Shown in pieces: positions 1-6,942 of a DNA stretch of 64,000 nucleotides (position 1 is its first letter; every line of letters starts with the position of its first letter). The notes under the pieces were generated by a model. That model did no database searches and had not been told where the DNA came from. It saw nothing but the letters and a program-made list of their open reading frames with translations. The stretch is from the IMG/VR virus record IMGVR_UViG_3300048796_000029, positions 8,326 through 72,325 of that record. One strand, written 5' to 3'. The position numbers and the translations under genes are program-made. This DNA is from a virus. Taxonomy: Duplodnaviria; Caudoviricetes.

Positions 1-284
1 CAGAAGATACTAAGGCTAGGATGAGAGCAGCCGCTGTAGGTAAACCTAAATCTGAGGAGCATAAAGCTAAACTCAGGAAGCCTAAATCTGATGAAGCTAA
101 AGCAGCTATGAAAGCCGCTTGGACCCTTGAGCGAAAGGCAAAGGGAACTTCATTTTCAAAAGGAAGGGTAATAACGGAGGCTATACGAGAAAAAATACGT
201 CAAGCAAATATAGCCTATCAAGTAAGAAAAAGACAGGAGGCTGAATGCAGATTGAATCCGATGGCATTGCCAGCGGCAGCCTAA
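1..284 (+). CDS. C-terminal part of a homing endonuclease with NUMOD3-like DNA-binding repeats (5' truncated by window edge)
   Basis: Frame is open from position 3: EDTKARMRAAAVGKPKSEEHKAKLRKPKSDEAKAAMKAAW resembles repeated NUMOD3 (SEEHKAK-type) motifs; low GC; overlaps the portal start. Confidence 0.6.
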   Translation, partial: EDTKARMRAAAVGKPKSEEHKAKLRKPKSDEAKAAMKAAWTLERKAKGTSFSKGRVITEAIREKIRQANIAYQVRKRQEAECRLNPMALPAAA

Positions 285-420
285 AACCTGCTGATTACGG
301 AAAAGGTGGTGATCTAACCAGCAGTAATGCCGAGTTGACGCTTGTTGTAGGAGCAGCAAAGCAAGCTGAAGAATGGATCGCTAACAAACAGTGGGCGCTC
401 TTGTGGCGTGATGCAGACCT
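245..420 (+). CDS. Portal protein, exon 1
   Basis: AGGAGG RBS just upstream of ATG 245; reads ...QWALLWRDAD-CT and joins in frame to 647 to give WRDADLLYQSPRP. Confidence 0.8.
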
Positions 421-646
421 CAACATGGGGGTCACTTGCTAGTGATAGCAAGCTGAGAACTTTCTCTGATTGACTTGGAAGCTGAAATGGCTAACAGGGG
501 GCAAGCTGATAACTTCAGCAGCCTGAACGACTAAGTGAGAGAGCATCTGGAAACAGATGATGCGATAGTCTGACCTGCATGGAATAACAACATGCAGAGG
601 TAAGCAGAAATGACTTGCCTCGGCGTAAATCGCCGATAACAAAGTG
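421..646 (+). mobile_element. Group I intron 1 (ORF-less, 226 nt) in portal gene
   Basis: P1: exon GACCU (416-420) pairs with GGGUC (429-433) with U.G at the junction; P7 strands GACUA and (GCGA)UAGUC; ends in G646; removal restores the frame. Confidence 0.85.
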
Positions 647-704
647 CCTGTATCAGTCACCGCGTCCAATGACAGTGTACGAGAACACGTATGTACTGGA
701 ACCT
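647..704 (+). CDS. Portal protein, exon 2 (58-nt micro-exon)
   Basis: Encodes (L)LYQSPRPMTVYENTYVLEP, in frame with exon 1 and exon 3. Confidence 0.8.
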
Positions 705-939
705 AAACTACTCATTACAAATGAGTTATTGGGTCACTCTGTAGTGATGCAGATGTGAGAATTTTCTCTGATTGACTTGGAAGCTGAAATGGCTAACAGG
801 GGGCAAGCGAAAGCAGCCTGAACGACTAAGTGAGAAAACATCTGGAAACAGATGATGCGATAGTCTGACCTGCATGGAATAACAACATGCAGAGGTAAGC
901 AGAAATGACTTGCCTCGGCGAAAGCCGATAACAACGGTG
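705..939 (+). mobile_element. Group I intron 2 (ORF-less, 235 nt) in portal gene
   Basis: P1: ACCU (701-704) with GGGU (731-734), U.G at the junction; same core as intron 1; ends in G939; splicing gives VLEP|NVQRFTVAK. Confidence 0.85.
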
Positions 940-2811
940 AATGTCCAGAGATTTACGGTCGCTAAAGTTTGTAACGCGGTAGTTCCTCAACTGTATAAAG
1001 GGCTTTTCTATGCCGACCCTCCTATGCTGCTGCGCCCGCGCCCCGGAACCACCCAAGATGTTGTGGACGGCAAATCCGCACTGTTCTCTTACCTACTCGA
1101 CGAATGCCGCTTCAAGACGGAGACGAAGTGGGGACTCGAACAGATGGCTTGCCTCGGCACTGGCATCTGGAAATGGGGCATCGTCTACAAGAAAGTTGTG
1201 ACGACCAAGCGCCAAGCCACGGTTACCAACGTGACGACCGGGCCGGACGGCGCACCAACGAATACCGTACTGCCTACAGACGACCTACCGAAGATCACGA
1301 CAACAGAGCGCGTTGTACCCCGCCCGTTCTTTGAGTCGCGGCCACTGAGCCACGTCCTCGTCGATCCTAAGTGCCCGGTTGGAGACATCCGACAGGCCGA
1401 CTTCGTAGCAGACGTTCGCTACCTGAATTTTTACGAACTGGACACGATCCGCGAAGCTCTCTCAGAGCTACCGGACGATCACCCAGACAAGAAGGGCTGG
1501 AATCTTCCGAAGTCTTCGGAGGAGTTGAAGCAGTGGTGGATGCCACCTACTGACAGCGGCCCGCAGTTGCTTTCGAGTGAAGGTGCAACCTACATCGACG
1601 GTGCTGTGTATCATGCGCAGAAAGTTAGCATCGAGGTAACCCCGGACGTACTCTTCGCAAAGAAAGAGGTTCTGGAATACTGGGATCGCAAGCGCAAGAT
1701 CATGGTCATCGACCGTGCCAAGGTAATCTTCTCTGGCGACAATCCATTCGGCGTCATCCCGTTCCTTTCAGCGAACTGGTGGAATAGACCGAAGGCGTTC
1801 TACGGCATGGGACTCGGCCTCATCGTCGGACAGAACCAACGTGTCGATCAGGGAACGATCAACGCCATCCTCAAGATTTTGTCTTTCGGCGTCAACCCGA
1901 TCTACCTGCGCAAGAGGGACACCAATAACCCCACGCAGATGATTCGGACTGGCCTCGGAAAGATTCTCAGCGTTGACGGAGAAGTCGAAAAGGCTTACAA
2001 GCTCATGGACACCCCCAAGGTGCCCGGCGATATCTGGTCGGCGTTGAAAGAGTCCGAGACAGCAACCGAAAGCGCGTCAGGCGCAGACCAAGCTCTTGTG
2101 CAAGGTTCAAGCGCAGGGCCGCGTAGCTCTATGGGGCGCACGGCTGGCGGAGCAAGTCTGCTGGCAGGAGCGAGCGCTACCCGACTCGATGGCCCGCTCG
2201 ACAACTTCATCGAACAGGTGTTCAAGCCGTTCTTGTACATCCTCGACGATCTAATCATGCGGTACCTGTCCGACGCTGAGATCAGTGCAATCCTCGGCGA
2301 CGAGATGAGCAAGGATTACGAACTCGACCTAGACGCCTTCCACAAGGCCCGTATCGAGTACGAAGTCTTGGCTGGATCAAGCCTCGCCGCGAAGCGGACG
2401 ATGGCGCAGTCGTTGACCCTCATCACCCAGATTTTCGAGAACCCCGCCATTCAGCAGAACCTCGCTGAGATCAACGGCGAGTACATCGACTTCAAGCCCA
2501 TCGTTTCGATGTGGATGGAAGCCTCTGAGTGGAAGAACAAAAACGACATCATCAAGCCACTCACCCCTGAGATGAAGGCCAAGCAGCAGGCTCAGTCGCA
2601 GCAGGCGCAAGCGCAATCGAAGGCAGCAGTAACTCAGCAATCCAACCAGCAGAAGTTTCAGCAGAAGTCCCAGCTTGAAGATCAGGCAACTGATAACCGT
2701 ATCCGGCGCGACATCGTACGCGAGGCGTTCCGAGACAACGGTATGAGCGAGGCAACTGAGGGCACTCCCGCAAGCGGTGGACTTGAAGGAATGCAGCCTA
2801 GCGTCCAGTAA
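940..2811 (+). CDS. Portal protein (P22-like head-tail connector), exon 3
   Basis: Long ORF with PFxxxxWxxxPxxFYGMGLG and a Q-rich C-terminal barrel typical of P22-type portals; sits before scaffold and capsid. Confidence 0.8.
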   Translation, partial: NVQRFTVAKVCNAVVPQLYKGLFYADPPMLLRPRPGTTQDVVDGKSALFSYLLDECRFKTETKWGLEQMACLGTGIWKWGIVYKKVVTTKRQATVTNVTTGPDGAPTNTVLPTDDLPKITTTERVVPRPFFESRPLSHVLVDPKCPVGDIRQADFVADVRYLNFYELDTIREALSELPDDHPDKKGWNLPKSSEELKQWWMPPTDSGPQLLSSEGATYIDGAVYHAQKVSIEVTPDVLFAKKEVLEYWDRKRKIMVIDRAKVIFSGDNPFGVIPFLSANWWNRPKAFYGMGLGLIVGQNQRVDQGTINAILKILSFGVNPIYLRKRDTNNPTQMIRTGLGKILSVDGEVEKAYKLMDTPKVPGDIWSALKESETATESASGADQALVQGSSAGPRSSMGRTAGGASLLAGASATRLDGPLDNFIEQVFKPFLYILDDLIMRYLSDAEISAILGDEMSKDYELDLDAFHKARIEYEVLAGSSLAAKRTMAQSLTLITQIFENPAIQQNLAEINGEYIDFKPIVSMWMEASEWKNKNDIIKPLTPEMKAKQQAQSQQAQAQSKAAVTQQSNQQKFQQKSQLEDQATDNRIRRDIVREAFRDNGMSEATEGTPASGGLEGMQPSVQ

Positions 2812-4498: not shown

Positions 4499-4503
4499 AA
4501 CTG

Positions 4504-4833
4504 CCCGGTGAAATTCCGGGTGCTACCCGTGTCTCGGGCCTAAACAGACATTCCGCTGGTCACGGCGATTCTCGTGCATTAGGCGGCCCTCCTATGCGGG
4601 GGCCGTCTACTATTTGAATTTGGAAGTTGGATCAAGACGGTGGATTACCGTGACTGATCCCCTAGTATGTGCTGAGGAAGTTTTCGATCTGAGACCCTGA
4701 TCGAACGACAGAAACCAACGGTCGGATTACCGTTGCGCGGAGTCGAGTGCCATAAAGGGCGATACGCAAGAGAGACGCTTCTGGAGGGAAGTCGGCAACC
4801 TCGTATCACGTTTCAGGAAGTAAAGGAATCACA
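4504..4833 (+). promoter_or_regulatory. Structured non-coding leader of the capsid gene
   Basis: About 330 nt with no credible ORF and many stems (e.g. GGATCA/TGATCC, TTCGATC/GATCGAA, GATACG/CGTATC) plus two GGAUU-loop hairpins. Confidence 0.5.
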
Positions 4834-4899
4834 ATGGCATACACTCCTGCTGGAAACGTCCAGTCAAACCTCCCTCAGTCCACCGTCAAGTTCTACGAT
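4834..4899 (+). CDS. Major capsid protein, exon 1
   Basis: AAGGA RBS; MAYTPAGNVQSNLPQSTVKFYD joins in frame to KKFRENLKAQTPF at 5126. Confidence 0.8.
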
Positions 4900-5125
4900 A
4901 AACGATAACCTTGTCGTAGTAAAACCTTCTCTGATTGACTTGGAAGCTGAAATGGCTAACAGGGCGCAAGCAATGCTTGACAAAAGCAACGCAGCGTGAG
5001 AGACTAAGTGAGAGGGCGTGAATTGATAACAATTCATGATGCGATAGTCCGAACATACGGGAATAACAACCGTATGAGATCAGCAGAAATGACCTGATCC
5101 GTGCTCTGAAGCACGTAACACATTG
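4900..5125 (+). mobile_element. Group I intron 3 (ORF-less, 226 nt) in capsid gene
   Basis: P1: UACGAU (4894-4899) with GUCGUA (4913-4918), U.G at the junction; shared core; P7 GACUA/UAGUC; ends in G5125. Confidence 0.85.
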
Positions 5126-5959
5126 AAGAAGTTTCGAGAGAACCTCAAGGCTCAAACACCTTTCATCGCCTGTTCCGAACGTCTCGATCTGCCCACCAAG
5201 AGTGGTAATCAGTACGAGATGTTCATGTACGTTCCGCTGGCTGCAAATCAGGCGCAGACCACGGAAGGTTCAGTGGGCAACAGTATCACCGTAAACGTTC
5301 TCCAGACCACCGCAACTATCGGAGAATACGCAGATTACGCCAACTTCTCCTCGCTGTCTCTGGCAACCGCCATCGACAACACTGTCGAGAATGTGGCCCG
5401 CGAAATGTCCTACCGTCTGGGCGAGAGCCTGAGCGGTCTGGTTCGCGCAACTGCGGACGGTGCAAACGCGGTTGACCCCAGCGTTCTCATCGCTCTCCCG
5501 GCAGCTTCGACTTCCAGCTTCACGACTCTCAGCCTGACCGAGATTCGTAACGCTGTCCAGTCCCTCGCTGGTCGTTCTGTGCGTCCGTACGACGAAGCAT
5601 CCAAGGCATTCTGCGGTGTAATCCACCCGTTTGCTCTGGGCGACGTTCTTGCGGATACCGCGAACAACGCACCAATCGACATCCTCAAGCACACTCCGGT
5701 GGGCCTTGCCAAGATGGAAGACCTCCTGAGCACCGACTTGACCGAGATGATCGAACTGCCTAGCTCTGGAGTTCACTTCTTCCAGACGAATCAGGTCACC
5801 ACGACCACGAACTACAAGGGCGTGGCTGGTCTGACGGCACTCCGTACCTACATCTTCGGGCGTGATGGCATCTACAGCATCAAGCTCGGCGCTCAGGGCG
5901 ACACGGAGTTCGGTGACGGCGAGTGGCAGAACATCAACTGCAACATCGTTCAGAACGCT
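5126..5959 (+). CDS. Major capsid protein (N4-gp56-like / HK97 fold), exon 2
   Basis: Contains LPxxSGxxxxMFxYxPL, TATIGEYADY and GVIHP motifs typical of N4-gp56-family capsids. Confidence 0.8.
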
Positions 5960-6010
5960 ATACAGTAGGTTTGGCGTTCTTTTGAAGTTGTGTGGTAACC
6001 GTCCTAAATG
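5960..6010 (+). mobile_element. 51-nt core-less mini-intron (group I-type P1, P10 and terminal G only) in capsid gene
   Basis: Three in-frame stops (5966, 5996, 6005); GAACGCU (5953-5959) pairs with GGCGUUC (5973-5979) with U.G at the junction; AGGUUU (5967-5972) pairs with 3' exon GAACCU (6011-6016); ends in G6010; removal gives IVQNA|EPTVADPEG. Confidence 0.7.
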
Positions 6011-6091
6011 GAACCTACGGTTGCCGATCCCGAGGGGCTGATCCCCGGTTGGACTTCTTACAGAGTCCACTTCACAACTTCGCTCGGCCCT
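6011..6091 (+). CDS. Major capsid protein, exon 3 (81 nt)
   Basis: EPTVADPEGLIPGWTSYRVHFTTSLGP; matches the expected DPxxxxGxxxxK/R-type capsid C-terminal segment. Confidence 0.75.
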
Positions 6092-6318
6092 AAATGCTAA
6101 GTATTGGGGCGAGTAATAAACCTTCTCTGATTGACTTGGAAGCTGAAATGGCTAACAGGGGGCAAGCGCGGATGAAAATCCAAGCAGCCTGAGAGACTAA
6201 GTGAGAGGGAACCTGATAAGCACAGGTTATGCGATAGTCCGATCTTGCAGGAATAAAAACTGCAAGAGGTAGGCAGAAATGTCCTACCTCAGTGACGTAA
6301 GTTACTGATAACAATTTG
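6092..6318 (+). mobile_element. Group I intron 4 (ORF-less, 227 nt) in capsid gene
   Basis: P1: GCCCU (6087-6091) with GGGGC (6106-6110); P10: GUAUU (6101-6105) with GAUAC (6319-6323); shared core; ends in G6318. Confidence 0.85.
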
Positions 6319-6369
6319 GATACGACCATCAGAATCCGCGAAATCGACGCCGCAAGCGCGATCAGCTAA
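6319..6369 (+). CDS. Major capsid protein, exon 4
   Basis: DTTIRIREIDAASAIS-stop, in frame after splicing. Confidence 0.75.
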   Translation, partial: DTTIRIREIDAASAIS

Positions 6370-6385
6370 TTGTTCACAACAGGTC

Positions 6386-6414
6386 TTGACAAAACACTCA
6401 TTGTTTGGTACAAT
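6386..6414 (+). promoter_or_regulatory. Sigma70-type promoter for the HNH gene
   Basis: TTGACA-17 nt-TACAAT; ATG at 6421 lies 7 nt downstream of the -10 box. Confidence 0.7.
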
Positions 6415-6420
6415 GTAATA

Positions 6421-6942
6421 ATGAGAAAACTAGACCTAGCAGGAAAACAATACGGAAGGCTGACACTTGTAAAAGTTGTCGGTGTGAATAAGGCAAAACA
6501 GAGAGTGTGGGAATGCGCTTGCGAGTGCGGTAAAACGCATATCGCGGCGCAAGGCCACCTCACAAAAGGTAAGGTCACCAGTTGTGGTTGCTTCCGAAAG
6601 GAACGCGCAACCACACATGGGATGACTCGCACCCCGGAATGGTTTGCTTACCAACACGCGAAGTCTCGGTGCCAACCGGGACATGAATGTCATGAGCATT
6701 ACTTTGATCGAGGTATAACTTTTGGGTTTACCTCCTTCATGGAGTTCTTTTCCGAGATAGGCTTACGCCCATCGAAGAAGCACTCCGTAGACCGTATCGA
6801 CAACGATAGGGGATACGAACGGGGTAATGTTCGCTGGGCTACAAAATCCCAGCAAGAGCGTAACCGTAGATGTGACAACTGCTGTGAACTAAAAAGCAGG
6901 ATAGCAGAGCTTGAGAAGCGCATTCTCGAACTGACTAAGTAG
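6421..6942 (+). CDS. Free-standing HNH homing endonuclease
   Basis: DLAGKQYGRLT..WECACECG N-terminus, RGI, and SVDRIDNDRGYERGNVRWAT HNH core. Confidence 0.85.
   Translation: MRKLDLAGKQYGRLTLVKVVGVNKAKQRVWECACECGKTHIAAQGHLTKGKVTSCGCFRKERATTHGMTRTPEWFAYQHAKSRCQPGHECHEHYFDRGITFGFTSFMEFFSEIGLRPSKKHSVDRIDNDRGYERGNVRWATKSQQERNRRCDNCCELKSRIAELEKRILELTK

Follow-up and report, generated by a model that had tools for sequence, protein, structure and literature searches.

Group I introns are textbook autonomous ribozymes. Phage examples interrupt the td, nrdB and sunY genes of T4 and orf142 of Staphylococcus phage Twort, in which several introns occupy one gene. Their 3′ splice site is selected, as in the T4 sunY intron, by P10 together with P9.0, a pairing of J7/9 with the bases before the terminal G. 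The core can also recognise a P1 helix to which it is not joined in the usual way, as in the Tetrahymena L-21 ScaI ribozyme, engineered trans-splicing ribozymes and multi-piece sunY ribozymes. Two further phage systems deserve mention: T4 gene 60, in which ribosomes bypass a 50-nt coding gap, and collaborative homing in T3/T7-like phages, which combines ORF-less introns with free-standing endonucleases. The nearest published description to the element reported here concerns degenerate group I introns of only 56–81 nt in the nuclear SSU rRNA genes of fungi (Phialophora and lichen fungi). They are described as possessing P7 and as self-splicing, and each stands singly in its rRNA gene, unaccompanied by a complete intron (Harris and Rogers 2011, PMC3160393). 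In the full-text literature that we searched, in which few subscription journals were covered, we found no account of a group I intron lacking a core and relying on its neighbour.

We examined a 51-nt insert (hereafter the mini-intron) in the major capsid gene of a soil phage, one short exon upstream of a complete intron (intron 4). Comparative sequence analysis indicates that the mini-intron is likely a non-autonomous group I intron, excised by the tethered core of intron 4 before intron 4 itself is removed. It has in common with phage group I introns a P1 with a U·G pair, a guide that also forms P10, a terminal G and a pair of the P9.0/J7/9 type, and differs from them in being core-less, non-autonomous and anchored to the P1 of a neighbour. 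Intron 4 is an ordinary compact phage-type member of the group with a co-varying P3–P9 core; what would set the two apart from known phage introns is that one core would perform two successive splicings on two substrate helices.

The window, meaning the whole 64,000-nt stretch analysed, is the final 64 kb of a 72-kb soil-phage contig from a metagenome assembly, estimated to be 76% complete. The phage is related to Tunturi_3, a tundra-soil podovirus that infects Tunturiibacter (Acidobacteriota; PMC11924767), and the capsid regions of the two are colinear. The portal and major head genes of Tunturi_3 are free of introns; by comparison with them, these two genes carry two long introns each in the window (Table 1). 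The four long introns are siblings, with 78% identity between intron 1 and intron 4. Exon 2 matches the PHROG major head protein (E = 1e-10) and has 87% identity to Tunturi_3 gp6.

Table 1 Features of the portal and capsid region, in window coordinates
Feature	Position	Strand	Description
Portal gene	245–2811		Exon, intron 421–646, 58-nt exon, intron 705–939, exon; from comparison with Tunturi_3
Capsid exon 1	4836–4898	+	21 codons; colinear with the intron-free major head protein gp6 of Tunturi_3
Intron 1	4899–5125	+	Complete group I intron, 227 nt; ends from homology; co-varying core as in intron 4
Capsid exon 2	5126–5959	+	Ends in U5959; last 8 nt (5952–5959) are the 5′ strand of the mini-intron P1
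Core-less mini-intron	5960–6010	+	51 nt; preceded by U, last base G6010; ends from protein alignment
P10 guide	5965–5972	+	8 bp with the start of exon 3 (6011–6018); directly adjoins the P1 guide
P1 guide (internal guide sequence)	5973–5980	+	8 bp with 5952–5959; U5959·G5973 wobble at the 5′ splice site
Tether, 5′ strand	5984–5992	+	Exact reverse complement of 6073–6081; 9 Watson–Crick pairs
Stem 2, 5′ strand	5994–6002	+	Pairs with 6017–6025; 9 bp, one G·U
Mini-intron 3′ end	6009–6010	+	U6009 and terminal G6010; U6009 is the proposed partner of A6242 (P9.0-type pair)
Capsid exon 3	6011–6091	+	27 codons; protein identical to Tunturi_3
P10 target	6011–6018		Part of exon 3
Stem 2, 3′ strand	6017–6025		Part of exon 3
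Exon hairpin	6050–6069		Part of exon 3
Tether, 3′ strand	6073–6081		Part of exon 3
Intron 4 P1, 5′ strand	6083–6091		Part of exon 3
Intron 4	6092–6318	+	Complete group I intron, 227 nt; proposed catalytic partner of the mini-intron
Intron 4 P1 guide	6106–6113		
Intron 4 P3	6121–6127 with 6203–6209		
Intron 4 P7	6195–6199 with 6235–6239		
Intron 4 J7/9 base	6242		A6242
Intron 4 3′ end	6317–6318		U6317, then terminal G6318
Capsid exon 4	6319–6369	+	16 codons plus stop
Free-standing HNH endonuclease gene	6386–6942	+	ATG 6421; own promoter, −35 (6386–6391) and −10 (6409–6414), read from sequence

Because it contains three in-frame stops within 51 nt, the mini-intron must be removed or skipped, and exon 3 must stay in the mRNA because its 27 residues are identical to those of the intron-free homologue. 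Protein alignment picks the two ends exactly under the sole constraint that a T precede the insert and a G be its last base. The internal guide forms a P1 with a U·G wobble, an arrangement kept in all 24 loci described below, and the terminal G and P10 are present as well, the latter with compensatory changes. Within the window's own lineage (window, L117 and L098) such changes affect one column of P1, two of P10 and two of the tether; the P1 change is that of L098, the two P10 columns are those of L117/L098, and one tether column has three pair types. The helices contain G·U pairs and are thus RNA structures of the sense strand. The catalytic core (P3–P9, with the guanosine-binding site in P7) is absent from the mini-intron, since just 18 nt remain once P1, P10 and the tether are subtracted, and the shortest relatives measure 34 nt. 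The mini-intron keeps the substrate side only, namely the guide for P1 and P10, the terminal G and, before it, a base that fits P9.0. Rfam returned nothing in the mini-intron, either at the gathering score or at permissive E-values, and an exact search of viral contigs with its middle gave zero matches.

Relatives were collected by a protein-guided scan of viral contigs, a core-word scan of viral contigs and metagenomes, and three site-specific scans; the gapped patterns of the last returned mostly unrelated chance matches, and capsid loci that passed a protein screen were kept. Exons 2, 3 and 4 run uninterrupted in 75 of the 80 closest capsid loci. An insert of 34–98 nt within the last 60 codons of the capsid gene was found in 24 distinct loci, at five sites (after QNA, after EP, after ADP, inside the Trp codon of PGW and inside the Val codon of TV), each followed 15–81 nt downstream by a complete group I intron, itself at one of five sites, in nine site combinations altogether. 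All 24 have a P1 of 6–13 bp with U·G, a P10 of 4–8 bp and a tether of 6–11 bp, and in every locus the insert ends given by the protein alignment and the same T/G constraint coincide with the strongest P1. None of the loci surveyed has a mini-intron without a downstream complete intron, bearing out the expected co-occurrence, and the same capsid region also holds complete introns with no mini-intron (e.g. L264, L262, L232, L191, L159, L106 and L090). Seven loci (L089, L102, L115, L119, L129, L233 and L333) have mini-introns of 83–98 nt with an extra hairpin of about 45 nt in the interval from guide to tether, so that size can grow while the three conserved pairings are retained.

These comparisons bear on whether the mini-intron could splice autonomously, with the exon structure assisting, as has been claimed for the fungal rRNA-gene introns. 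The fungal small introns resemble it in having P1, P10 and a pairing of mid-intron with 3′ exon, and one was reported to be spliced in vitro (PMC3160393). However, neither the 51 nt of the mini-intron nor the 34–40 nt of its shorter relatives fit a P7 or any other guanosine-binding element, and we found no P7 candidate; a complete intron is present downstream in every case, and the P9.0-type base co-varies with the core of that intron (see below). The phage elements differ from the fungal ones also in that their tether is aimed beside the P1 of the downstream intron, and we consider autonomous splicing very unlikely.

Translational bypass, in which ribosomes would hop over the 51 nt in the manner of T4 gene 60 or shift frame through them, would suit a short stop-containing insert in an essential phage gene across which the +1 frame is open; gene 60 likewise presents a frame-breaking phage insert of about 50 nt that has to be skipped. 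The insert nonetheless lacks the defining features of hopping and bears those of group I introns. Take-off and landing codons do not match: GCU is the last codon shared, exon 3 is preceded by AUG, itself preceded by a stop, and there is no in-frame match. Nor does a stop in a hairpin follow directly on the take-off codon, the first stop lying two codons past the junction in the window and 12 codons past it in L027. Inserts of 34–98 nt at five sites all share a preceding U, a final G, the U·G of P1, P10 and the P9.0-type match, signals for which a ribosome has no use, and their G·U pairs mark RNA structure of the sense strand. Bypass or frameshifting is accordingly a highly improbable explanation. 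Least probable among the alternatives weighed is that the gene is broken (in a defective phage), that it yields two polypeptides with a restart at ATG 6008, or that the insert is an assembly artefact. The position of this ATG just before exon 3 and the origin of the incomplete contig in a metagenome assembly speak for it, but the architecture recurs in 24 independently assembled loci, compensatory changes keep three helices, no ribosome-binding sequence precedes 6008, and several relatives have no start codon after their inserts.

The core proposed to act on the mini-intron is that of intron 4. An alignment of 18 members of the intron family contains P3, P4–P6, P8, P9, P9.1 and an invariant P7 pseudoknot; 97% of cells are paired, 27 of the 44 pairs show double changes, and none of 500 shuffles equalled it. 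Intron 4 has co-varying P3, P4–P6, P8 and P9, the P7 pseudoknot, and a P9.0 pair that joins J7/9 to the nucleotide preceding the terminal G. It scores 21 bits (E = 0.053) against RF00028, below the gathering threshold of 50, and that model fits its compact family poorly. Intron 4 thus appears to be a real ribozyme with a complete, co-varying group I core.

The preliminary description had proposed that the interior of the mini-intron pairs with exon 3 through a first stem of nine Watson–Crick pairs, here called the tether, and the helix lies exactly where it had been placed; a tenth pair (U·G, 5983/6082) is possible. The mini-intron P1 ends 3 nt short of the tether. On the other side, the core of the intron 4 P1 starts at 6087, and an extended form starts at 6083, 1 nt past the tether; in this form 6083–6085 and 6087–6091 pair with the guide while G6086 is bulged, and a compensatory change in L127 is in support. 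The minimum-energy fold of 5940–6100 contains the tether, stem 2, the exon 3 hairpin and a hairpin at 5952–5980 (z = −4.06), and the fold of 5940–6330 keeps them beside the intron core (z = −6.5). When the 3′ part of the mini-intron was shuffled, an equally good helix appeared anywhere in exon 3 in 2% of trials and beside the intron 4 P1 in 0.2%, the position window of this test (5–16 nt before the splice site) having been picked after the data were seen.

Comparison across loci argues that the tether is under selection for pairing next to the partner intron. Its exon strand ends 6–14 nt before the 5′ splice site of the partner in 20 of 20 loci measured, and its position directly against the partner P1 has a Fisher p of 9e-9 (six lineage representatives). 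Ten loci have the partner at the same site as the window; their mini-introns occupy three sites and their tethers pair with common exon codons. In these ten, 6 of 11 tether columns have changed in both strands, individual columns showing as many as four pair types, and the changes follow synonymous codon differences, such as serine AGC versus UCN, in keeping with the anticipated co-variation with synonymous exon positions. The tether is moreover re-aimed in two recombinant loci. The head of the mini-intron in L280 is the same as that of L104, the partner lies 25 codons earlier and the tether fits the exon beside that partner; the ends in this locus, which contains several introns, were read by eye. 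L333 matches L119 exactly as far as mid-mini-intron and from there has the tether, exon and partner of the L144 type; it is a recombinant joined inside the mini-intron, with tether, tail, exon and partner travelling together.

A second link connects the mini-intron to the partner core itself. In the intron family, the third base past the 3′ strand of P7 (J7/9) and the nucleotide preceding the terminal G co-vary so as to keep a Watson–Crick pair: of 29 introns with protein-fixed ends, 26 conform (A:U 19, U:A 4, G:C 2, C:G 1), one of the three exceptions is a boundary error, and the wider family has the same pattern. The base before the G of the mini-intron follows the J7/9 base of the downstream partner in all loci examined, being U in 21 loci where the partner has A, and A where the partner has U, in L117, in L087 and, in a different gene, in L094; the link is one base pair, U is the common state, and the switch occurs in three lineages only. 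For a second P9.0 pair, at position −2, the mini-intron data gave no consistent pattern.

This link also helps to weigh the possibility that the group I chemistry is provided in trans by any of the phage's abundant intron ribozymes, whether free or part of other transcripts, with the tether as an aid to local folding or exon alignment. The window does hold four sibling introns with one common core and an identical J7/9 base, and group I cores are known to be able to process P1 helices supplied separately. Against provision in trans, the tether lies in every case directly beside the P1 of the next intron downstream and takes a new exon target where that intron sits elsewhere, and mini-introns away from a complete intron were not found among the surveyed loci. 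In six loci (L087, L117, L167, L089, L104 and L091) with a discordant upstream intron, the mini-intron matches its downstream partner and never the upstream one. Provision in trans is therefore unlikely. The arrangement likewise departs from that of laboratory ribozymes with separate substrates, which bind through the ribozyme's own guide: the mini-intron is a substrate that brings its own guide, is held in cis by a dedicated helix and occurs in natural genes. The earlier proposal that one ribozyme excises two introns is instead supported by a tether that adjoins the P1 of the next downstream intron in 24 loci, irrespective of exon sequence and of distance (15–81 nt), by its co-variation and re-aiming at relocated partners, and by a base before G that matches the partner's J7/9 through three independent switches.

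The tether had originally been combined with a second stem into a two-stem scaffold. Stem 2 is exact in sequence, with the pairing and single G·U claimed for it; it leaves a 14-nt loop (6003–6016) that holds the 3′ splice site (6010/6011), and a helix as good arises in 0.2% of shuffles. The exon 3 hairpin that had been pointed out is also present (6050–6055 with 6064–6069). As a general feature, however, only the tether, which co-varies, holds. The 5′ strand of stem 2 lies within an 11-nt insertion that is unique to the window and missing from its two nearest mini-intron homologues, L117 and L098, so that stem 2 is optional or lineage-specific. Similar pairings between tail and exon start are seen in L098, L091 and the L089 group and are absent where the tail is 4–7 nt long (combined p = 0.02). 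Stem 2 may simply tidy a long tail and keep the last G close to the junction. Since two of its bases also belong to P10, the two helices would form in turn.

The tether creates a three-way junction in which the mini-intron P1 and the intron 4 P1 are alternative arms beside the strand that enters the core. The linkers are short, 0–8 nt from the guide strand to the tether and 0–3 nt from the other strand of the tether to the partner P1, and the guide strand of the partner P1 leads into P3. In this geometry the tether and the intron 4 P1 hairpin would occupy the place that P2/P2.1 take in the P1–P3 interval of larger group I introns, and this P2/P2.1-like polarity of the connection from P1 to core would account for the partner always being downstream. 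We envisage that the intron 4 core would first dock the mini-intron P1, whereupon guanosine would cleave at 5959/5960. P10 would then form, G6010 would occupy the guanosine site in P7 while U6009 pairs with A6242, and ligation of exons 2 and 3 would follow. Finally, intron 4 would dock its own P1 and excise itself. Removal of intron 4 first would strand the mini-intron, and the model therefore needs an enforced order. To our knowledge, a natural group I core swapping between two tethered P1 helices has never been demonstrated.

Beyond this locus, we lean towards the view that phages harbour a class of core-less 'hitch-hiker' group I cassettes, each consisting of guide, tether and terminal G. 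Docked by a P2-like tether, they would be excised in cis by the core of whichever complete intron follows downstream, would co-evolve with it at P9.0 and would spread as a module with that intron and the intervening exon. Such cassettes would provide the first natural example of a single ribozyme serving two introns in obligatory order. If so, natural introns can separate the ribozyme from its substrate and share the former, a dependence that parallels that of non-autonomous transposons on autonomous ones, and the cassettes would offer a natural system for the study of P1 docking and exchange, 3′ splice site choice (P9.0 and P10) and the enforcement of splicing order. They would also account for frame-breaking inserts of 30–100 nt in phage structural genes, which cause gene callers to split or truncate the genes and could be mistaken for bypass sites, pseudogenes or assembly errors. 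A scan by structure alone around 132 intron cores yielded 22 candidates against 2 after shuffling. This count is rough, as some 7 of the 22 appear spurious, either having an open frame when unspliced or carrying the wrong base ahead of G.

Metatranscriptome contigs from four runs that join 5958/5959 to 6011/6017 have the letters of insert-free relatives; they carry an L007-like allele and many other differences from the window. None of the RNA contigs from those four runs covers the introns or the mini-intron.

The surroundings of the capsid gene contain candidate mobility genes. The HNH gene matches a PHROG HNH endonuclease (E = 2e-41) and starts 52 nt past the capsid stop, and an ORF at 3–284 that extends into the start of the portal gene matches a family of homing endonucleases (E = 2e-4); Pfam gave zero matches for the capsid exon, the HNH protein and this upstream ORF, for which PHROGs gave matches. 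With ORF-less introns, an HNH gene after the capsid gene and the endonuclease-like ORF, the layout resembles collaborative homing. Compared with L007, the closest relative, DNA identity is 78% in exons 3 and 4 and 94.5% in exon 2, and the changes in exons 3 and 4 are all synonymous, the pattern expected of a co-conversion tract that would have arrived with the intron cassette. The likeness to collaborative homing thus comprises an ORF-less intron, an HNH gene directly after the capsid gene and a co-conversion-like divergence of exons 3–4; such homing explains the spread of the cassette but not the removal of the mini-intron. The recombinant loci suggest a way in which such cassettes would move with homing endonuclease traffic. 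In the closest relatives, L007 (2431–3000), L008 and L035, the intron at the site of the window's intron 1 is about 570 nt long and has an HNH-like ORF in a peripheral loop, whereas the window copy is ORF-less and 227 nt long; these three loci have neither the mini-intron nor intron 4.

The two portal introns are ORF-less siblings only 58 nt apart and, unlike the capsid introns, both contain an additional hairpin in the P1–P3 interval; omission of the 58-nt exon between them would shift the frame. A stretch of about 340 nt (4499–4835) between a small upstream gene and the capsid start codon contains no convincing ORF.

Four of the 22 candidates from the structure scan are plausible mini-introns upstream of complete introns in other genes (L094, L153, L218 and L242), each with P1, P10, a tether and a matching base before G; that of L094 (− strand) is 41 nt long and is followed by an 18-nt exon. 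In L357 (4914–5400, − strand orientation) a capsid mini-intron of 43 nt has a partner intron of a different subfamily 27 nt downstream, with a further complete intron past a 22-nt exon. Five loci (L100, L108, L111, L114 and L133) carry a complete intron of the family about 60 nt past an intact capsid stop, preceded by a short copy of the last codons of the capsid gene, which looks like the leftover of a replaced gene end.
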